Shown here: one piece after another, positions 10,553-23,162 of the stretch
Numbering within the stretch: position 1 is the stretch's first letter
Layout: every line of letters begins with the position of its first letter
Sequence record: LC739535.1
Strand: one strand, 5' to 3'
Length of the DNA: 64,000 nucleotides
Source of the DNA: Escherichia phage phiWec186
Position numbers and translations under genes: made by a program
The notes under the pieces: model-generated
What the model was told of the DNA's origin: nothing
Databases searched by the model: none
What the model saw: only the letters and a program-made list of their open reading frames with translations

Positions 10553-12367
10553 ATGCATAATTTATATCAGGACGTATTTTCTTTTTTGGATAAAACTTGT
10601 GACACATATACACGAGAGAACGCAAACAAACCCTCTCACCTCGTTAACACACATAGGGACTTACTGGCGGGGATTTTAAGTAAGCACATGGCAATGACTC
10701 AGATATTACCAAAGAACCTCGCAGAATGGCATACAGAAGGTTTTGGACATATCCATGATCTTGATTATCTGTTGTCTCCTCTTACGAATTGTTGTCTGGT
10801 AAACTACCAAGATATGCTGGAGAATGGCTTTAAAATCGGTGCTGCATATATTGAGAAACCTAAGTCCATTGGTGTAGCCACCACAGTGTTGACGCAAATC
10901 ATCCAGGCTGTTGCTTCAAGCCAGTATGGGGGACAAACTTGTGCTCATATTGATCAGGGGTTAAGTCAGTATGTTGAAGCTACCTACCTTAAGAATTTGA
11001 GAGAAACAGAACTACGTTACGGATACCCAGCCTGTAACGAAGCTTTAGCAGCAACAGATAAGGCTGTATATGATGCTATGCAGACATTGCTGTACCAGGT
11101 GAATACACTGATGAGCGTCAATGGACAATCTCCTTTCATCACTATCAGTATGGGATTAGATACAACAGTTTTTGGGAGAATGATCACTAAGAACTATCTT
11201 AAGGTACACAGTGAAGGGTTAGGGAAAGATCATGTCACACCTGTGTTCCCTAAAGTTGTGTTCTTCCTGGAGGAAGGTGTTAACATGGCAACTGAAGATC
11301 CTAATTACGATCTGAAAAAACAAGCTTTAGAGTGTTGTGCAGATCGAATCTATCCTGACTTCATTTCTGTGCCTCTTAACAAGGAAGTGACAGGCTCTAC
11401 GAAAGGAAATGTTACCAGTATGGGGTGCCGTTCGTTCCTGTCTTACTACACTACAGAACAGGGAGAGAAGTATGATGGACGTTTTAATTTAGGAGTTGTG
11501 TCAATAAACTTACCATTAATTGCAGCTAAAGCAAAAACAGAAGGATATTGTTTCTCTGACCTACTTGATGAACATATGCGTCTGGCTTACGATGCTCATA
11601 TGCTTCGGGTGGAACGCCTACGTCATACACGCGCATCAGAGAACCCTATCCTGTTTATGGAAGGGGCTTTAGCACGTCTCAATGCTGACGATGAGATTGG
11701 AGTTTTGTTTGAGGGTGGGTATGCTTCAATCAGTATTGGGTATGTAGGATTGTCCGAAGCTTTGGAGATCTTATACTCTGAAGAAGCGGATAAGAAAGAG
11801 ATGGGCAAAGCTATTCTGCAATACATGAAAGACACTTGTGCAGAGTTTAAAGAGTTGTCTAATCTGCCTTTCAGTTTGTATGGCACTCCTGCGGAATCCT
11901 TGTGCTACAAGTTTGCCACAGCTTTAAATAAAAATTATCCTAATCTGCATGTACGGGATTACCTGACCAACTCGTTCCATCAACCTGTTTGGGAGGTTAC
12001 AAATCCTTTTGAGAAGTGGGACTACGAAACAGGTTTTGCTCAAATCAGTAATGGCGGGAATATTAGTTATGTAGAAACTCCCAACCTGAAGAACAACTTG
12101 GAAGCTTTAGAAGCTTTGGTCGATTATGCTTATGAGCGCATCCATTACTTTGGCATCAATCAACCAGTGGATCAATGTTTCAAATGCAACTTTCATGGGG
12201 AGTTTAAAGCTACAGCAAAAGGTTTTGAATGCCCTTCGTGCGGGAATAATGAAGAAGAAACTATCTCCGTTATTCGTCGTGTTTCCGGTTATCTGTCTGC
12301 CCCTAACTCGCGCCCTTACAACAAAGGGAAAATGCAGGAAGTGTTACAAAGGGAGAAACATCTTTGA
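10553..12367 (+). CDS. nrdD: anaerobic ribonucleoside-triphosphate reductase (class III)
   Basis: C-terminal glycyl-radical motif RRVSGYLS and Zn-ribbon CFKCNF...CPSCGN; about 600 aa like phage NrdD lacking the ATP cone. Confidence 0.85.
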   Translation: MHNLYQDVFSFLDKTCDTYTRENANKPSHLVNTHRDLLAGILSKHMAMTQILPKNLAEWHTEGFGHIHDLDYLLSPLTNCCLVNYQDMLENGFKIGAAYIEKPKSIGVATTVLTQIIQAVASSQYGGQTCAHIDQGLSQYVEATYLKNLRETELRYGYPACNEALAATDKAVYDAMQTLLYQVNTLMSVNGQSPFITISMGLDTTVFGRMITKNYLKVHSEGLGKDHVTPVFPKVVFFLEEGVNMATEDPNYDLKKQALECCADRIYPDFISVPLNKEVTGSTKGNVTSMGCRSFLSYYTTEQGEKYDGRFNLGVVSINLPLIAAKAKTEGYCFSDLLDEHMRLAYDAHMLRVERLRHTRASENPILFMEGALARLNADDEIGVLFEGGYASISIGYVGLSEALEILYSEEADKKEMGKAILQYMKDTCAEFKELSNLPFSLYGTPAESLCYKFATALNKNYPNLHVRDYLTNSFHQPVWEVTNPFEKWDYETGFAQISNGGNISYVETPNLKNNLEALEALVDYAYERIHYFGINQPVDQCFKCNFHGEFKATAKGFECPSCGNNEEETISVIRRVSGYLSAPNSRPYNKGKMQEVLQREKHL

Positions 12368-12834
12368 ATTGTTCAGGCTATGAAGCAACAGACATGCTTA
12401 ACGGAGAAGGGGTGAGATGCTCTCTATGGGTCAGTGGATGTAGCCACGGATGCAGAGGATGTTTCAATCAGAAAGCCTGGTCATACTCTTACGGCGCAGC
12501 TTTCACAGAAGCAGATGTAGAACGTGTGTTAGCAGATTTGGCACGACCTTTCATTAAAGGTGTAACAATCTTAGGGGGAGAACCTTTAGACCCACAGAAT
12601 ATTGATGAAGTTTATAAGTTGATACTCCGAATCAAGGAAGTGTACGGGGAAGATAAGGATGTGATGGTGTATACAGGATATTTGTTTGAAGACATTCCTT
12701 CCCACATCAAGAATGTTGTGGATACAATCATGGATGGTAAATATGATTTAAATCAACCAACAGCAAAGCCATTCAGAGGTTCTGATAATCAGAGATTATG
12801 GAACAAGAAGAATGGTATTTGGCAAGCAGATTAA
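12364..12834 (+). CDS. nrdG: anaerobic RNR activating enzyme (radical SAM)
   Basis: NGEGVRCSLWVSGCSHGCRGC (CxxxCxxC); N-terminus aligns with E. coli NrdG if the TTG at 12364 is used. Confidence 0.8.
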   Translation: MNCSGYEATDMLNGEGVRCSLWVSGCSHGCRGCFNQKAWSYSYGAAFTEADVERVLADLARPFIKGVTILGGEPLDPQNIDEVYKLILRIKEVYGEDKDVMVYTGYLFEDIPSHIKNVVDTIMDGKYDLNQPTAKPFRGSDNQRLWNKKNGIWQAD

Positions 12835-13655: not shown

Positions 13656-14312
13656 ATGACTATTAAACATATCTCTTTTGATGTATGGAACACACTGATC
13701 ACAGCAAACCCCAATTACGCAGATATGCGAGCGTGGACTATCGCAAAATACGGGGATATTACGGAAGTAGAAGCAAGAGCAGCTTACAAGAAGATCAAAA
13801 AGGAACTGGACAATGCCGCACTTCAGGGAACAGCCGAGTGTGCAGCATATGCCTGGGAAAGACTTGGTTACGAACTTGGGATAACACCTTTGAAGTCTGC
13901 AAAGCTTCGTTTCGAGTGTGAACAGTGGTTCCTTAAGTTTCCACCGCATGTGGCTGTGGATTTACCGATGCACTTGCTGTATCTTTCGGGGCGTTATGAT
14001 TTGAGCATCAAGAGTAATACCAACTTCATATCAGGAGATATCTTGCGACGTGCCTGTAAGTTTGAAGGTTGGAATTGTTTTGAGTTCACACATTTCTCGG
14101 ATGAAGCTTTACTTTGTAAACCAGATCCGCGATTCTTTGCTCGCACGATCACTTATTCTCCAATCCCTCTGGTAGGGCAGGAAGTGTTGCACGTAGGTGA
14201 TAGTGAAGAATATGATGGAAAATGTGTTGACGTAGGATTTAACTTCTGTCATATTAAGAACCCTAACGACTTGTTAGATAAACTTGCTAAAGGAGAACTT
14301 GTTAATGCGTAA
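13656..14312 (+). CDS. HAD-superfamily hydrolase (putative phosphatase)
   Basis: Motif I-like ISFDVWNTL and motif IV-like HVGDSEEYD. Confidence 0.5.
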   Translation: MTIKHISFDVWNTLITANPNYADMRAWTIAKYGDITEVEARAAYKKIKKELDNAALQGTAECAAYAWERLGYELGITPLKSAKLRFECEQWFLKFPPHVAVDLPMHLLYLSGRYDLSIKSNTNFISGDILRRACKFEGWNCFEFTHFSDEALLCKPDPRFFARTITYSPIPLVGQEVLHVGDSEEYDGKCVDVGFNFCHIKNPNDLLDKLAKGELVNA

Positions 14313-15132
14313 TCAAACTCAAATCTTTGCTCACAAATTCGATAGTCTGGAAACTGCTCGCTTTGATATTCGTGACTATTCCAAACTGAAGTTTGGCAGC
14401 AACCAGGCGGCTCGCCGTATGGGGCGAACGCTGGCAGTCTCTTTCTATGACTTGGTAGTCAAGAATATGCCGGAAGAAGAATTTGTGGTGATTCCTTCAC
14501 CTTACAACCATGTGCATAACGCAGCAACCATGATGACCAATCAGTTCATCAACTTCCTGAACCTGTTGCTGTTGAATCACAAGGGTAGCCGTGCAGTAGA
14601 ATTGGATACGATCCACCGCAAGGTGAGTTACATTAACGATTATGGTTTCCTGGACAAAGCGAGCCGTAAGAAACTGATTGATGGTGACACCTTCTATTGC
14701 AACAAAGATTTTTGGGGCAACAAGAAGCTGATCTTCATTGATGATGTGAACATCACGGGAACTCATGAAGACAAACTGATTGAGATCCTGGATGAAAATA
14801 AAGTTACGAATGATGTTTACTTCCTGTATTTTGCGAAGTATACTGGTAATCAAGCAGACACAGAGGCTAAACTGAACTTCAACCATATTAACACGACAGA
14901 TGCTTTTGTTAAGATGATCAATGAAGAATGTGATGCGCAGTGTCTTGTTCGTCCTATCAAGTATTTGATGGGACAAACACCGGAAGAGTTTAAAATCATT
15001 CTTTCCCGTTTGCCGCACCAATACGTAGAAGCACTGTTCTTTGGGTGTCTTGGGGAAGGTTATGATAAGATCGAGAAGTATTCTGAAAACTTCGTCTTCC
15101 TGAACCGTTACTTTAACCAGCATATCCTGTAA
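14305..15132 (+). CDS. phosphoribosyltransferase (PRT fold)
   Basis: PRPP-binding signature KKLIFIDDVNITGT; ATG at 14305 after AAGGAG. Confidence 0.55.
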   Translation: MRNQTQIFAHKFDSLETARFDIRDYSKLKFGSNQAARRMGRTLAVSFYDLVVKNMPEEEFVVIPSPYNHVHNAATMMTNQFINFLNLLLLNHKGSRAVELDTIHRKVSYINDYGFLDKASRKKLIDGDTFYCNKDFWGNKKLIFIDDVNITGTHEDKLIEILDENKVTNDVYFLYFAKYTGNQADTEAKLNFNHINTTDAFVKMINEECDAQCLVRPIKYLMGQTPEEFKIILSRLPHQYVEALFFGCLGEGYDKIEKYSENFVFLNRYFNQHIL

Positions 15133-15141
15133 GGAGGGAAA

Positions 15142-15624
15142 ATGTTGAAGGTTGTTACTGGGAATCTGATCGATGCCGCCAAGAATGGGAAAGTGAACGT
15201 TATAGCCCACTGTTGTAACTGTATGTGTAATATGGGTGCAGGGATTGCTCCGCAAATTAAACGAGCATTTCCTTATGCATATGCAGCCGACTTGGATACA
15301 GCGGCAGGTGATCAAAGCAAACTGGGTTCTTTTAGTTTAGGGGTGCCGGAGGAAGTGTCTGACCCACTGGTTTATAACCTGTACGGACAGTACCGTTACG
15401 GGTATAACGGTAAAGGTCGTCAGTTGGACTATGATGCCCTGTACGATGCTCTTGAGGCTATGGCAAAGGATCTCCACAAATGGGTGAACACATCTGCCAA
15501 ACATAAGATTGGTCTACCTATGATCGGAGCAGGGTTGGCAGGAGGTAATTGGGCTATCATTGAAGTGATGATTGAAGAAACTTTAGTAAAAACAGGTCAC
15601 GATGTGACTATTTATAAACTTTAA
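15142..15624 (+). CDS. macro-domain protein (ADP-ribose binding/processing)
   Basis: GNLIDAAKNGKVNVIAHCCNC..GAGIA and IGLPMIGAGLAGG resemble macro-domain motifs. Confidence 0.55.
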   Translation: MLKVVTGNLIDAAKNGKVNVIAHCCNCMCNMGAGIAPQIKRAFPYAYAADLDTAAGDQSKLGSFSLGVPEEVSDPLVYNLYGQYRYGYNGKGRQLDYDALYDALEAMAKDLHKWVNTSAKHKIGLPMIGAGLAGGNWAIIEVMIEETLVKTGHDVTIYKL

Positions 15625-15940: not shown

Positions 15941-16915
15941 ATGCAACTTGGTTTTCCAATCATTGATGTAGTGGTGTTGGTAGGTATTCTTGTTCTGTCG
16001 ATCTGTGTTGACTTTTTTGGTCATCGTGAAAACAAGGAGATCTCTTTCAAATCCGCTGTGGCTTGGTCAGTATTCTGGATTGGTGTGTCTTTAGCCTACT
16101 ACGGTTTTGTATACTTCCAGCACGGCGCAGCTTTTGCAAACTTATTCTTGAGTGGATATGTGTTAGAGAAGTCGCTCTCGGTAGATAACTTGGTAGTGTT
16201 TGTAGCAGTGTTCTCCAGTTTCGGGATTAAGAGCACACACTTACAACACAAAATTCTACTCTGGGGTATTGCAGGTGCGATTGTCTTCCGAGGTGTGTTT
16301 GTAGCAGCAGGGACTTATCTGCTAAGTTTGGGTTGGTTTGTTAATATCATCTTCGGTGCTGTTATCCTGTTCTGTGCTTTTAAAATGGTAATGGCTGGCG
16401 GTGATGATGAAGAAGTGGATTACTCTAAACATTGGGCGACACGCTTTGTACGTAAACTATTCCCAGTATCGGATCAGATGGATGGCGAGAAGTTCTTCAC
16501 AATTAAGAATGGTGTTCGTGTAGCAACTCCGGCTCTGGTTTGTGTGTTCGTGATGGAAATGGTGGATGTGATCTTTGCAGTAGACTCGGTTCCGGCTGTA
16601 ATTGCAGTGACACAAGAACCACTGCTTGTATTCTCTTCGATGCTCTGTGCAATCTTAGGCTTACGTGCTCTGTTCTTTGTTCTTAGTGTGGCCCTGAAGT
16701 ATCTGGTTCACCTGGAAAAAGCAGTTATCGCAGTCCTGGTGTTTGTTGGTGTGAAACTGATGTATCACCCGTTTGCAGAAACGCTGCACGCAAAAGTGAG
16801 CTTCCTGCCAGCGCATATTGACCCGACGATCAGCATGTATATCGTGCTTGGTACTCTGACCCTGGGCGTGATTGCAAGTTTCATCTTCCCTGAAAAAGAA
16901 GAAGCTACCGCTTAA
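15941..16915 (+). CDS. TerC-family integral membrane protein
   Basis: Multiple TM helices and the TerC-type signature GYVLEKSLSVDNLVVF. Confidence 0.75.
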   Translation: MQLGFPIIDVVVLVGILVLSICVDFFGHRENKEISFKSAVAWSVFWIGVSLAYYGFVYFQHGAAFANLFLSGYVLEKSLSVDNLVVFVAVFSSFGIKSTHLQHKILLWGIAGAIVFRGVFVAAGTYLLSLGWFVNIIFGAVILFCAFKMVMAGGDDEEVDYSKHWATRFVRKLFPVSDQMDGEKFFTIKNGVRVATPALVCVFVMEMVDVIFAVDSVPAVIAVTQEPLLVFSSMLCAILGLRALFFVLSVALKYLVHLEKAVIAVLVFVGVKLMYHPFAETLHAKVSFLPAHIDPTISMYIVLGTLTLGVIASFIFPEKEEATA

Positions 16916-18438: not shown

Positions 18439-19029
18439 ATGAATACCGAGAGAGATTTAAAACTCTTGTGGTGGGAAGTGATGCAGGAGATCAAGGAGGA
18501 TTTCCCTGTTTACTACAACATGCTACGTGAAGCTGGATATACGGCTTGCGTTAGGAACAAAGTGAATAACTCTTTCGGTTGGTGCAACTACCGAGAAAAG
18601 ATTGTTGTTGTGAATTGGCACTTGCATAAAAACTCCACAAGGGATATGATAGTGGACACAATGAAGCATGAGATTGCTCATGCGATCGACGGTTGTATGG
18701 GTAAGTTCAGTCGTCATGGACCACACTGGCAAAAGCTGGCAGCAGAGTTGGGAGCCAATCCTAAAGCTACTTCCAAAGAACCGTTAAACCATGAGTACAA
18801 ATATGTTCTTGTTTTGGTGGACAGATTTGCCACAAGATGTGTTAGAGGGTATAATCGTAAACCTAACCGTATGACTCCAGGGAAACAACCACATATTTGG
18901 TTGAAGAGTGATAAAGAGGGGACAGAAGGAAAAATATGGTTGTATAAATGGGAAGATTGGGTTAAAGTAGCTAAAGAATATGGTGTTTCACCTTACACAA
19001 GAGAAATAGAAGAGGAGAATGAAGAATGA
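18439..19029 (+). CDS. SprT-like zinc metallopeptidase (putative)
   Basis: HExxH motif MKHEIAHAIDG. Confidence 0.45.
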   Translation: MNTERDLKLLWWEVMQEIKEDFPVYYNMLREAGYTACVRNKVNNSFGWCNYREKIVVVNWHLHKNSTRDMIVDTMKHEIAHAIDGCMGKFSRHGPHWQKLAAELGANPKATSKEPLNHEYKYVLVLVDRFATRCVRGYNRKPNRMTPGKQPHIWLKSDKEGTEGKIWLYKWEDWVKVAKEYGVSPYTREIEEENEE

Positions 19030-20138
19030 CAAGTCCATTTTTGAAAGCGGCAACTGGTGGTCAAAAGAAATCTGAAACGAGTGTACTGACTGCTACTACA
19101 GATGCAAGCAAGTCCGTGTTCGCTCCGAGTGTCCTGGATGCAAGTCCAGTGTATGCTCCAGCAGCGCCAAAAGCTGTGCCTACCTTGCCAACAATGTCTC
19201 GTAAAGAGATTGAAGAAGTGGGTGCAGAAGCAGGTTTAACTCTCCGCACGCTGAATGCCGAAGTGTTAAAGCACCAACGTAGCAATCAAGGCGATGAAAT
19301 GAGCCAACGCCTTACCGCGCTGATTAAACAAGCCAAACAGCTTGATCCTGCTTCTATCAAGCAGAGCAAAGGTGTAGGCAAACTTATCAAGAAACTGATG
19401 GGTATGAAGGAAGATCTGTTCGGGGAATTCGATAATGTGAACAACCGTATCGAAGAACTCGTTAAGAATCTTCAGATGGATATTCGTAAAGAAGAAGATT
19501 CTCTGGTGTACCTGGAGAAGCTGCACCAGGCGATCGGACAGTACGCCGCAAGCCTGAATCGTGATATGGAATTACTCACAGCAGCTTATGAGCAAGAACT
19601 GGCTAACTTTGAAGCTACGCCAGAAGATGACGTAGAAGCCCGTCAACGCGTCCGTGACACGCTTGATCTTCTGGAGATACGTATTGCTGACTTGAAGGCA
19701 TTACGCTTGCTGTGCGTGCAAATGGGGCCGCGTGTATTGGGTATGCAGAAAGTATCTGCCAGCCTCATGCGTTCTGCTCGTAATATTGTGAACAATGTGA
19801 TTCCTGCTTACTCGGCAAACTTCTCGATGTATATTGAAAGTCTGCGCCAGAAGAAAGCAGCAGAAACACAGAACAACGTTCTGGACGAGTTCAACCTGGC
19901 AATCAAACTGGGTAGCGATCTTGCCACACAGAACCAGATCGAAGCAGCAGCACTGGCTAACCGCCAAGTGTTGGATATCGAAACTCTGCGTCACGATCAG
20001 GAGAACTTGGTTAAGATGTTGGAAGAAACTAACCGCATCAATACGGAAGCCCGTGCTGCCCGTGTTGATTACATCAATGAAGTTCAATCTCTCGAAGATG
20101 GGATGGTTGACGCTGTTAAGAAGGGGTTGGGTAAATGA
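19026..20138 (+). CDS. TelA-like (toxic anion resistance family) protein
   Basis: About 370 aa helical protein; segments resemble TelA/KlaB as I recall them; SD GAGGAG. Confidence 0.5.
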   Translation: MTSPFLKAATGGQKKSETSVLTATTDASKSVFAPSVLDASPVYAPAAPKAVPTLPTMSRKEIEEVGAEAGLTLRTLNAEVLKHQRSNQGDEMSQRLTALIKQAKQLDPASIKQSKGVGKLIKKLMGMKEDLFGEFDNVNNRIEELVKNLQMDIRKEEDSLVYLEKLHQAIGQYAASLNRDMELLTAAYEQELANFEATPEDDVEARQRVRDTLDLLEIRIADLKALRLLCVQMGPRVLGMQKVSASLMRSARNIVNNVIPAYSANFSMYIESLRQKKAAETQNNVLDEFNLAIKLGSDLATQNQIEAAALANRQVLDIETLRHDQENLVKMLEETNRINTEARAARVDYINEVQSLEDGMVDAVKKGLGK

Positions 20139-20508: not shown

Positions 20509-20899
20509 ACACACAAACGTAAACTTGAAATTAACAGTAACAGATCCGACTCTTTTCATCAATCTTACAAGCGGGGAAGTTTATGAAGTTATCACAGACG
20601 AGGATGGTTCTTGCTTCCTTAAAGGTTATTATCTCTGTGAATCTGATGAGTTGGTATCTATTATCACCTTGGGAGAATACGAAGAACCAGGCTTCCGTGT
20701 GGAGGTTGTTAAGAATCCCGATATTATCCAGTTGACTCGCCAAGAACTGATCACAATCATGGAAGACGCTTTTATTGATGGATGGAAGACTCAAAACTAT
20801 GATTGGAGTGGCCCAGAAGACTTCCTGCGTCTTCATAAAGAGTATGACGATTCCAGCGAAACTACTATTGCCATTGATAGTATTAAGGCTGGTGTGTAA
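20501..20899 (+). CDS. hypothetical protein
   Basis: SD GGGGAGGAAGA. Confidence 0.55.
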   Translation: MFKHTNVNLKLTVTDPTLFINLTSGEVYEVITDEDGSCFLKGYYLCESDELVSIITLGEYEEPGFRVEVVKNPDIIQLTRQELITIMEDAFIDGWKTQNYDWSGPEDFLRLHKEYDDSSETTIAIDSIKAGV

Positions 20900-20908
20900 T
20901 GAAAAGTG

Positions 20909-20937
20909 TTGACAACAATCTCCATAAGATGGATAAT
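20909..20937 (+). promoter_or_regulatory. sigma70-like promoter TTGACA-N17-GATAAT
   Basis: gtgTTGACAac context in the intergenic gap. Confidence 0.55.
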
Positions 20938-20968
20938 ACCTCCATCGAAAAAACGGGAGGAGATAAGA

Positions 20969-21241
20969 ATGTTTGATTTTAAAATAAAGGATTCAAAACC
21001 CCAAGATGTAGCAGTTCGTTTCGAAGAGTTGGGGATTGGTGAAACTTTCATGTATTATTCAGCATATGAAGAAAATGGTTTGGATACATTTGCAAACTTA
21101 GTATTCCTTAAAAGCGGCGGCGCGACTGCTGTTTGTTTGAATAGTTCATCAAGAGGGAGTGTCCATACCGTATCCCCAGATGTGCCGATGGTTGCAGTTC
21201 GTTTAGTAGTTACTGATATTACACTTACAGAGGAGAAATAA
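20969..21241 (+). CDS. hypothetical protein (paralog of 22263..22544)
   Basis: ATG at 20969 after GGGAGGAG; homologous to the 22263 product. Confidence 0.55.
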   Translation: MFDFKIKDSKPQDVAVRFEELGIGETFMYYSAYEENGLDTFANLVFLKSGGATAVCLNSSSRGSVHTVSPDVPMVAVRLVVTDITLTEEK

Positions 21242-21242
21242 T

Positions 21243-22043
21243 ATGTCCAATAAAATTAGCCTGAAGAAACGCCAAGACACCCTGACCATTTCACTGAAGA
21301 AAAAGAAAATTGTCAACGAAGATCAAAAGATCGTTCTGCGTGTTGCAAGCGCACTGGATATCTCCGGCAGCATGTCCAGCCTGTATCGTAACGGTACTGT
21401 AAGTGAGTTTGTTGGTAAGCTGCTTCCGTTTGGTATGCTGTTCGATGATAACGCGCAGATCGATATGTGGGCTTTCAACAATAGCTCTCGTGAAATCACT
21501 CCAGCAACTGCTGATGTGTATGATGATTACGTTGGTAAATGCATTAATGGTCGTGTAACAGTCCAGGGTGGCACAAGCTATGCACCTGTTATGCAGGATA
21601 TTTACGATTCCTACTTCGGTAGCACCACTAAATATGAAACTGTAGAAACCCCTGTAACCAAAGAAGTTCCTAAGAAAGGTTTCTTCAACCGTTTACTGGG
21701 TAAAACCGAAACTGTAGAAGCTATTGTAGAAAAAACTGTAGCCGTTGCTGTGCCTGGTGTAGACGTTACTCCGGCAGTTGTGTTCTTCCAGACAGATGGA
21801 GAGAACGATGATCCGAGCCGTGTACTCTCCGTACTGGAAAAGAACAAGGGTAAACCTATTTACTGGTTCATGGTGGGTGTTGGTAGTGCTCGTTTCTCTT
21901 TCCTGAAAGATTTGGCTGAAGCTTACGACAACGTAGCATTCATTGGTCTGAACGATCTTTCCTTGACAGACGAGCAGCTTTACGATAAACTCTTGTCTGA
22001 AGAGTTCGGTGAGTGGGTTGAAAAGGTTGGTGCTAAGAAATGA
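21243..22043 (+). CDS. von Willebrand factor A (vWA) domain protein, TerY-like
   Basis: MIDAS motif LDISGSM, then GGTSYAPV and VFFQTDGENDD; N-terminus shares the SxKISLKK...ISLKK start with the TerD gene. Confidence 0.65.
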   Translation: MSNKISLKKRQDTLTISLKKKKIVNEDQKIVLRVASALDISGSMSSLYRNGTVSEFVGKLLPFGMLFDDNAQIDMWAFNNSSREITPATADVYDDYVGKCINGRVTVQGGTSYAPVMQDIYDSYFGSTTKYETVETPVTKEVPKKGFFNRLLGKTETVEAIVEKTVAVAVPGVDVTPAVVFFQTDGENDDPSRVLSVLEKNKGKPIYWFMVGVGSARFSFLKDLAEAYDNVAFIGLNDLSLTDEQLYDKLLSEEFGEWVEKVGAKK

Positions 22044-22282
22044 TCGACACGCTGATCTCTCAAACGGTGTTGCAAGTGATGCGTGAGAGAGAAGCTTTCA
22101 TCATGAAGGGTCTTAAAGATTATTTTGGGACTCTTTCTTTGGAAGAACTCAAACTACGCGTTGAGATCCATGCGTATCCTTCTTATGAAGAATGGATTGA
22201 CAAAGCAAATAAAGCTGTTATAATGCGTATCAACAAACCAGAAATCACGACAGGAGGACAAGATGTTAAATTTCGCCATTAA
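22040..22282 (+). CDS. hypothetical protein
   Basis: ATGA-coupled ORF; weak SD. Confidence 0.4.
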   Translation: MIDTLISQTVLQVMREREAFIMKGLKDYFGTLSLEELKLRVEIHAYPSYEEWIDKANKAVIMRINKPEITTGGQDVKFRH

Positions 22283-22544
22283 GAAAGATAGCAAACCAAA
22301 GATTCAGACTTGTCGCATTGCAAATCTTACACATGGTGATTTGTTTGTTCTGAAAAGTGCCTACGACGAAGACGGTCTTGATCCAGAAGCAGTCGTCGTT
22401 TATATGGTGTTGCGGCGAGATGAAGACACCAAGCACCCATACAATGCGGTAGAGATGAATTACAATGCAATGTTGTGCTCAATACACTATACGGCAGAGT
22501 TGGTGCAGGTAGAGTTAACAGTTAACGAAATTAAACTTAAATAA
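22263..22544 (+). CDS. hypothetical protein (paralog of 20969..21241)
   Basis: SD AGGAGGA; sequence similarity to 20969..21241. Confidence 0.55.
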   Translation: MLNFAIKKDSKPKIQTCRIANLTHGDLFVLKSAYDEDGLDPEAVVVYMVLRRDEDTKHPYNAVEMNYNAMLCSIHYTAELVQVELTVNEIKLK

Positions 22545-22559
22545 TAGAGGAGACACATA

Positions 22560-23162
22560 ATGAGCGATAAAATTTCCCTGAAAAAAGGTTCCACCGAGAA
22601 GATTTCCCTGAAGAAAGTTGCTCCGGCACTGAAAGAACTGCGTCTGGAGTTCTCCTGGAAATCAAACTCTAAACTGGATCTGGATGTAAGCGCACTTGTA
22701 TGCCGACACAACGCCTCTGGCAACCCTGAAATGCTGTCTGCACGTCATCTGGTTTGTTATGCTAACAAGTTTGATCCAGAACGTTCTGTATTCGCAGGTG
22801 ATGATGTTCGTGACGGTACTGGTCAAATGGAACAAATCGATGTAACCTTGGCTAAGATCTCCGATAAAGCCGAAGAGATTGCTTTTGTCCTAACTATTGA
22901 TGATGAAACGGGTCAGAAACGTCTGGGTCACGCTACTGAAGGTATGCTGAAGATCTTTGATGCCGAGCGTAACGTTGAGATCCTGGACTTCGACTTCTTG
23001 GCTCCTGAAGTGGCTGGTAATACCATCTGCCACGTAGCTTCCCTGGTTCGTGAAGACGGTGAATGGAAACTGAAAGCTTACGGTGTTGGTAAAGCAGGTA
23101 TGGATATCTGTGATGTGGTTATGGCCTTCGGTGGTCAGAAAGAATGGTACGATTGCCCGTAA
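22560..23162 (+). CDS. TerD-domain protein
   Basis: TerD-like layout: N-terminal ISLKKG..ISLKK, DLDVSALV, GDDVRDGTG, FDFLAPE, C-terminal WKLKAYG. Confidence 0.7.
   Translation: MSDKISLKKGSTEKISLKKVAPALKELRLEFSWKSNSKLDLDVSALVCRHNASGNPEMLSARHLVCYANKFDPERSVFAGDDVRDGTGQMEQIDVTLAKISDKAEEIAFVLTIDDETGQKRLGHATEGMLKIFDAERNVEILDFDFLAPEVAGNTICHVASLVREDGEWKLKAYGVGKAGMDICDVVMAFGGQKEWYDCP

Follow-up and report, generated by a model that had tools for sequence, protein, structure and literature searches.

A shared and co-varying N-terminal motif in the adjoining vWA-TerF-like and TerD proteins of a phage Ter cluster

Two proteins with unrelated bodies, a vWA-TerF-like protein of 266 amino acids (positions 21243-22043, + strand) and a TerD-domain protein of 200 amino acids (22560-23162, + strand), begin in nearly the same way in the DNA of Escherichia phage phiWec186 (LC739535.1), of which a stretch of 64,000 nucleotides, referred to below as the window, was analysed. 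Judged by comparison with homologs, this shared start is an ancient, family-wide motif and not a local copying accident, and its spelling varies from lineage to lineage yet matches between the vWA protein and the adjoining TerD of the same genome. The explanation we favour, with a probability of roughly 0.55, is that the two proteins form a split TerF-like pair and that both carry a co-evolving motif which signals a common docking interaction. Ter systems are common in pathogens, plasmids and phages and are associated with tellurite, colicin and phage resistance; we know of no account of how their soluble parts (TerD paralogs, TerF-type vWA proteins and TelA) assemble and work. The motif offers a concrete handle on this assembly, being outside the curated vWA domain, common to TerD and changing in step in each genome.

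The vWA protein begins with MSNKISLKKRQDTLTISLKKKK and TerD with MSDKISLKKGSTEKISLKKVAP, the common form being M-S-x-K-ISLKK...ISLKK. When the two proteins are aligned with BLASTP, only residues 1-20 match, with 14 of 20 identical. Over the six reading frames of the window, the exact string ISLKK turns up four times, every copy lying within these two N-termini. The repeated ISLKK at both starts had been pointed out in an earlier note on this DNA, whose gene coordinates and sequences also proved correct. The same note placed the likeness at the DNA level as well. There is a single significant local DNA match, between 21193-21302 and 22504-22616 (67% over 116 nt, E 4.5e-10), and its score of 51 bits lies well above the best of 100 codon shuffles (29.7 bits). 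It extends from the 3' end of a small gene preceding each of the two, where a conserved C-terminus is encoded, through the Shine-Dalgarno sequence of the ribosome-binding site, AGAGGAGA, to the first ~20 codons. Within the N-termini themselves the DNA likeness adds little, because identical codons are used at 9 of the 13 shared amino acids where codon usage predicts 5.8, and each of the three Ser residues in common has a different codon in the two genes (TCC/AGC, AGC/TCC and TCA/TCC); it is little beyond the product of protein identity, codon bias and a strong ribosome-binding site.

In the window vWA protein, the Pfam vWA-TerF-like model begins only at residue 33, so that the motif region (21243-21308, + strand), with its two ISLKK copies, constitutes an unannotated N-terminal module. 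The motif, in its general form [ILVF]-x-[LM]-x-K, was scored in homologs as [ILVMF][SDNTE][LIVMF]x[KR] within the stretch of 55 residues that precedes DxSGS, the signature of the metal ion-dependent adhesion site (MIDAS). Among 105 vWA-TerF-like proteins with a recognisable MIDAS, 103 carry it before the MIDAS strand, in one to five copies and usually two to four. It lies ~80 codons into the gene in many phages, and it is also kept after N-terminal extensions of 80-120 residues. Bacterial bearers include proteins from Paenibacillus, Paraclostridium, cyanobacteria and Bacillota as well as plasmid-encoded ones; the cyanobacterial and other bacterial relatives are mostly TerD-vWA fusions, in which the motif copies sit in the inter-domain linker. 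Pfam scans of motif peptides of 30-46 residues gave no match, the peptides being too short.

In TerD, the motif is part of the domain itself. The N-terminus (ISLKK-G-x3-K-ISLKK, 22560-22616, + strand) falls within the Pfam TerD model, residues 5-180 matching profile positions 3-178 of 187, and it lines up with the beginning of solved TerD chains: ISLKKGSTEKISLKK is matched to VSLSKGG-NVSLTK of 3ibz and 2kxt, query residue 5 falling on chain residue 3. This segment forms the first two strands of the TerD beta-sandwich. The spacers between the motif copies are typical of each family, KRxExL in vWA proteins and KG(G/S)xx in TerD, and because they stay family-specific, the window vWA N-terminus is an ortholog of those in other vWA proteins, and TerD was not its source. 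A profile of 150 pre-vWA modules matches the start of the TerD profile and no other part of it, in a match that is short and modestly significant (hhalign P 8.8e-4, 20 columns, probability 23%), and positions 5-27 of the TerD hidden Markov model (HMM) match the fusion linker again, weakly.

Evidence for a link between the two proteins is that the motif is spelled alike within a genome. Phapecoctavirus-like phages have ISLKK in the vWA protein and ISLKK in TerD, and the corresponding pairs are VSLKK/VSLKK in loci L019 and L023 and LSLEK/LSLEK in L026; L007 has LSLKK/LALKK. In L035, LNLQK of the vWA protein stands beside LNLSK/LNLKK of TerD, and in L060 FNLEK/FVLEK stands beside FKLEK/FNLTK. A large group of phage contigs of 100-200 kb (L036-L093) has IDMSK-INMSK-IDMTK in the vWA protein and INMSK-ISMTK in TerD, Leu being replaced by Met in all five motif copies. 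In Nostoc-type fusions the correspondence is copy by copy, IELSK going with IALDK and FNLSK with FNLAK. Over four motif positions, identity is 2.5-2.9 within a genome and 1.6 between genomes. In permutation tests, which correct only partly for shared ancestry even though distinct spellings do arise in well-separated lineages, not one of 20,000-50,000 permutations equalled the observed value when 13-18 representatives below 50-60% vWA identity were used (p<=2e-5), and with eight representatives below 40% identity p was 0.0015. Such co-variation suggests recognition of the motif by the two proteins themselves or by a partner common to both.

Gene order is consistent with a functional pairing. 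In a survey of 80 phage and 80 bacterial loci, in which vWA, TerD and small genes were identified with local HMMs, the vWA gene was directly followed by TerD, both with the motif, in 49 of the phage loci. The small gene found beside each member of the pair in the window occurred in four of the 80 phage loci and, with the local HMM, in none of the 80 bacterial ones. The majority of phage vWA-TerD pairs thus occur without it.

Both proteins match curated domain models. The vWA protein matches PF10138 with 129.3 bits against a cut-off of 29.4 (E 2.7e-37), in two stretches separated by an insertion, and at the point where the match splits it is predicted to carry a long two-stranded beta arm (residues 127-143 and 155-171, window ~21621-21755). 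Its MIDAS is complete, with D39-x-S41-x-S43, T111 and D185, all of them invariant in 55 sequences. With an alignment of these 55 sequences, AlphaFold2 predicts a confident vWA fold of the Rossmann-like alpha/beta type in a monomer model (predicted local distance difference test score, pLDDT, 92.9), and Foldseek relates this model to integrin I domains, TRAP and the copine BON1 with a probability of 1.00. TerD matches PF02342 with 103 bits against a cut-off of 25.3 (E 1.8e-29), and its matches among solved structures are 3ibz (E 3.2e-14) and 2kxt (E 5.7e-14).

If the favoured explanation is right, the vWA-TerF-like protein and TerD would be the two halves of a split TerF-like unit within a larger Ter cluster that also comprises TerC, TelA, a phosphoribosyltransferase (PRTase) and a haloacid dehalogenase-like (HAD) hydrolase. 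The motif, in two to four repeats, would open the TerD domain and, in vWA proteins, form the module directly before the MIDAS strand, and selection at the protein level would hold one spelling in both proteins of a genome. The likeliest reason for this would be docking of the motif copies on a single common surface, which may be the TerD body, the copies themselves or one shared Ter partner. In the variant with the TerD body, the vWA N-terminus would mimic TerD's own first strands; whichever the surface, the motif would link the vWA protein to TerD. The genes of about 90 amino acids would be a lineage-specific accessory family, duplicated within the Phapecoctavirus group, that shares transcripts and translational coupling with vWA and TerD and on which the motif does not depend.

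Several observations weigh against this explanation. The AlphaFold2 model has an alpha-helix, and not strands, at vWA residues 7-20, a block with pLDDT 80-95 that covers most of the motif region. A simple strand mimicry of TerD is weakened by this helix, and the same letters may fold differently in the vWA protein than in TerD. In bacterial pre-vWA modules a Pro stands between the motifs (EAPxL/SPRL), so that a single continuous helix is disfavoured in these versions. Some vWA-TerF-like genes, such as those of Paenibacillus and of 18 viral loci, also retain the motif although TerD is absent from the surrounding 3.5-6 kb. To these points belong the brevity and modest significance of the match between the pre-vWA and TerD profiles and the incomplete correction for ancestry in the permutation tests. 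Should the co-variation be a lineage artefact, the locus would be an ordinary phage Ter cluster whose identical sequence is already in GenBank.

A more far-reaching version, which we put forward tentatively, regards the [ILVF]x[LM]xK repeats as a co-evolving assembly code of Ter systems, with one spelling per genome. The pre-vWA module would imitate the first strands of TerD and dock on TerD, or both would dock on the same partner, and in Phapecoctavirus-like phages the duplicated small family would serve as a dedicated adaptor or chaperone for the N-termini. The tight coupling of the small genes to the motif-bearing ones points, as the most economical guess, to an adaptor role or a regulatory one for the vWA-TerD pair.

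It is rather unlikely that the two starts have independent structural roles, the vWA segment forming an amphipathic helix on its own domain and the TerD start belonging to the beta-sandwich, with their likeness due to lineage effects or to a constraint unrelated to a vWA-TerD contact, such as a third partner or a membrane surface. The predicted helix would fit such an arrangement, as would the persistence of the motif in vWA genes that have no TerD nearby. It accounts poorly, however, for changes such as Leu to Met, Ile to Phe and Ser to Asn that affect all four to five motif copies of both proteins of one genome and are not seen elsewhere, or for the copy-specific correspondence in the Nostoc fusions.

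Concerted evolution at the DNA level, in which gene conversion or recombination between the 5' ends homogenises the motif of two functionally unlinked proteins, is improbable. As DNA, the copies of the motif amount to short direct repeats separated by 1.3 kb, and both the spelling match within genomes and the codon sharing in the window (9 of 13) would be expected from such a process. Over 19 genomes, however, 82 identical synonymous codons were counted at shared residues where codon usage predicts 77.7 (z = 0.71), and since there is no synonymous excess, selection acts on the protein, and recent gene conversion or an RNA signal is unlikely. In addition, Ser codons in the window differ by two to three bases, conversion tracts would erase the spacers that in fact stay family-specific, and in many phages the vWA motif is remote from the 5' end of its gene.

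The earlier note had interpreted the arrangement as a duplicated two-gene cassette, composed of a small gene and an ISLKK-bearing protein, one copy of which had its body replaced or diverged; the N-terminus would then be a remnant of common descent. This interpretation holds for the small genes but fails for the N-termini, and as an account of the shared start it is highly improbable. In its favour, the genes for small proteins A (90 amino acids, 20969-21241, + strand, phrog_11278 E 2.9e-28) and B (93 amino acids, 22263-22544, + strand, phrog_11278 E 2.2e-16) are indeed paralogs (34% identity, E 2e-10), each directly 5' of one member of the pair, as the note had it, and translationally coupled to it; the 116-nt DNA match runs contiguously across the small-gene 3' end, the Shine-Dalgarno sequence and the first 20 codons; and in this phage a strong promoter-like site lies upstream of each cassette. 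On the other side, each N-terminus is ancestral to its own family and also occurs where the small gene is missing, in other lineages and in bacteria, the inter-motif spacers are those of the respective family, the vWA and TerD bodies are unrelated folds, the site upstream of small A is not conserved in relatives, and the small gene shifts its place independently. A signal at the level of RNA or of translation initiation, or a chance match of low complexity, for which the ribosome-binding site, ATG and A-rich Lys codons common to both genes might speak, is already refuted by the confinement of ISLKK to four places in six frames, the internal position of the motif in fusions and long-N-terminus homologs, the lack of conservation at synonymous sites and the conservation of the motif across phyla.

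The small genes occur in several arrangements. The order vWA-small-TerD is found in L004, L005, L006, L009 and L018, small-vWA-TerD in L010, L011, L017 and L022, vWA-small-small-TerD in L007 and L008, and small-vWA-80aa-small-TerD in the window, SKA64, PsgM04F and L014. Because its position varies in this way among relatives, the small gene was duplicated and moved on its own. In a neighbour-joining tree, the pre-vWA copies (A) of the Phapecoctavirus group form a clade with 94% bootstrap support and its pre-TerD copies (B) one with 81%, while the sister relationship of A and B reaches only 48%; L017 and L022, which have A only, are nested inside the A clade and therefore probably lost B. The tandem small paralogs between vWA and TerD in L007 (1180-1725) and L008 (257-802) belong to an unrelated phage lineage and represent an independent duplication. 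A common C-terminal ...EEK/KEK tail was considered as an orthology mark of the pre-vWA copies and rejected, the last codons of small A (GAG GAG AAA) being those that hold the vWA Shine-Dalgarno sequence.

Members of the small family have ~87-93 amino acids and share F4, G24-(E/D)-T-F, A32-Y-E-x-x-G-L-D and a C-terminal V-x-V-x-L-x-V-x-x-I-x-L, traits that both window genes fit. A HMMER search of 1.84 billion representatives returned only ~20 clusters of 87-93 amino acids, and the eight members looked up all have vWA and/or TerD as neighbours in a phage Ter cluster. Hydrophobic residues alternate along the sequence, a pattern suggestive of a small all-beta protein. Against the TerD and vWA profiles the small protein scored below 1% probability in hhalign, its best match in a sequence search of the PDB was to antibody chains (E 0.29), and Pfam scans of 12 family members gave no match. 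Matches of the small profile, in multiple stretches, to Calx-beta-like repeat proteins of 1,200-3,300 amino acids (P0122, P0126, P0128, P0129) were judged spurious. As a separate observation, 'AEDNDGLDG' of these repeat giants can be set beside 'AYEENGLD' of the small family, both being putative calcium-related beta proteins.

Between vWA and small B lies a gene for 80 amino acids (22040-22282, + strand, phrog_22387), which overlaps the vWA gene at its stop codon (ATGA) and, at the other end, the beginning of small B. None of the genes upstream of small A resembles it, and a repeat block of three genes was rejected. Inside it, 39 nt upstream of small B, is a predicted promoter with a perfect sigma-70 consensus (TTGACA-16-TATAAT with an extended -10 TG, 22197-22224, + strand), conserved in SKA64 and PsgM04F, which would give small B and TerD their own host-polymerase transcript. 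The other predicted sigma-70-like promoter (TTGACA-17-GATAAT, 11/12, 20909-20937, + strand) is situated 32 nt upstream of small A and is absent from SKA64 and PsgM04F. Sites with at least 11/12 sigma-70 promoter matches number 11 in the window, 10 of them on the coding strand. In SKA64, PsgM04F and phiWec188/190, a gene for 187 amino acids (L001:4473-5036) is located between a 132-aa gene and small A, whereas this phage is without it (window 20899-20969). The promoter-like site at 20909-20937 falls on the junction so formed, and phiWec188/190 lack it as well.

The two proteins and their small neighbours belong to an operon-like run of + strand genes, the phage Ter cluster, at 13.6-23.2 kb of the window. 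It starts with a HAD-like hydrolase (13656-14312, PF00702 E 1.9e-4, a weak match below the curated cut-off) and continues with a ComF-like PRTase (14284-15132, PF15610 E 6.7e-41), a Macro domain protein (15142-15624) and a TerC-family membrane protein (15941-16915, PF03741 E 1.1e-39). A SprT-like gene (18439-19029) lies upstream of that for a TelA-like protein (19026-20138, PF05816 E 2.3e-34), which is separated from small A by three small open reading frames, and a SleB-like hydrolase is encoded downstream of TerD, all of these likewise on the + strand. Just upstream of the cluster, at 10553-12834, are the anaerobic ribonucleotide reductase NrdD and its activase. The phage is a relative of Phapecoctavirus: the window is 100% identical to Escherichia phages phiWec181 and phiWec179, and Phapecoctavirus phages, among them phAPEC8 and SKA64, reach ~80% identity. 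The record of Pseudomonas phage PsgM04F is 94.7% and that of Acinetobacter phage vB_AbaM_ABPW7 ~80% identical to the region; the host labels of both look doubtful.

Anantharaman, Iyer and Aravind reportedly described in 2012 a Ter stress-response system with TerD, TerC, TelA, TerF-type vWA and nucleoside-metabolite enzymes (PRTase, HAD). TerD, TerC, TelA, a TerF-type vWA protein, a PRTase and, with its weak match, a HAD hydrolase are present together here, and by this gene content the region is a phage copy of that system. For annotators, the likeness of vWA and TerD is a caution that alike N-termini in adjoining genes need not indicate recent duplication.

Phage-borne Ter copies have been reported earlier, in section 3.4.10 of PMC7824862 and section 3.5 of PMC8386662. 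The clusters treated there, those of phiKp34 and jumbo phages, have the same genes (TerC, TerF-type vWA, TerD, TelA, PRTase and HAD), and superinfection exclusion or stress tolerance is proposed as their role. These sections give gene lists, in which a shared or co-varying N-terminal motif and a small accessory family are not mentioned; within the literature surveyed both appear to be undescribed, and an earlier description elsewhere is possible.

Among known folds, copine and integrin I-type vWA domains have the Rossmann-like fold with a MIDAS in common with the phage protein, and many of its homologs give Pfam Copine matches. Unlike these domains, the phage vWA protein has an N-terminal ISLxK module and a long beta-hairpin arm, and identity is only 10-16%. 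The TerD proteins of Klebsiella (2KXT) and Streptomyces (3IBZ) are calcium-binding beta-sandwiches with which phage TerD aligns end to end (E ~1e-14). In the solved proteins two calcium sites are formed by acidic loops of the GDN(R)TGEGDGDDE type; the putative counterpart in phage TerD, at residues ~78-92, is present but diverged (GDDVRDGTGQMEQ against GDNITGEGEGDDEQ in 3ibz).

A close parallel is TerF of the terZABCDEF operons of IncHI2 plasmids and the E. coli O157 island, in which a TerD domain and a vWA-TerF-like one, the same two domains as in the phage pair, are fused. In the TerF of IncHI2 plasmid p1-Ec387 (L174:8473-9714), the linker ISLEKKLETRSPRLVSLAKKASVSLTK holds three motif copies in the VSLxK spelling, and proteins of the same operon start accordingly: TerZ with VSLVK..VSLSK, TerD with VSLSK..VSLSK and TerE with VSLVK..VSLTK. 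Because the TerF linker shares VSLxK with TerZ, TerD and TerE, the spelling match is not specific to phages. TerF and the phage pair are alike in having [IV]SLxK directly before the vWA domain, spelled as in their TerD-type neighbours. The phage pair differs in consisting of separate genes, vWA and then TerD, which is the reverse of the fusion order, with the 80-aa gene and a small paralog between them, and in a vWA protein that has only two motif copies, placed at its extreme N-terminus.

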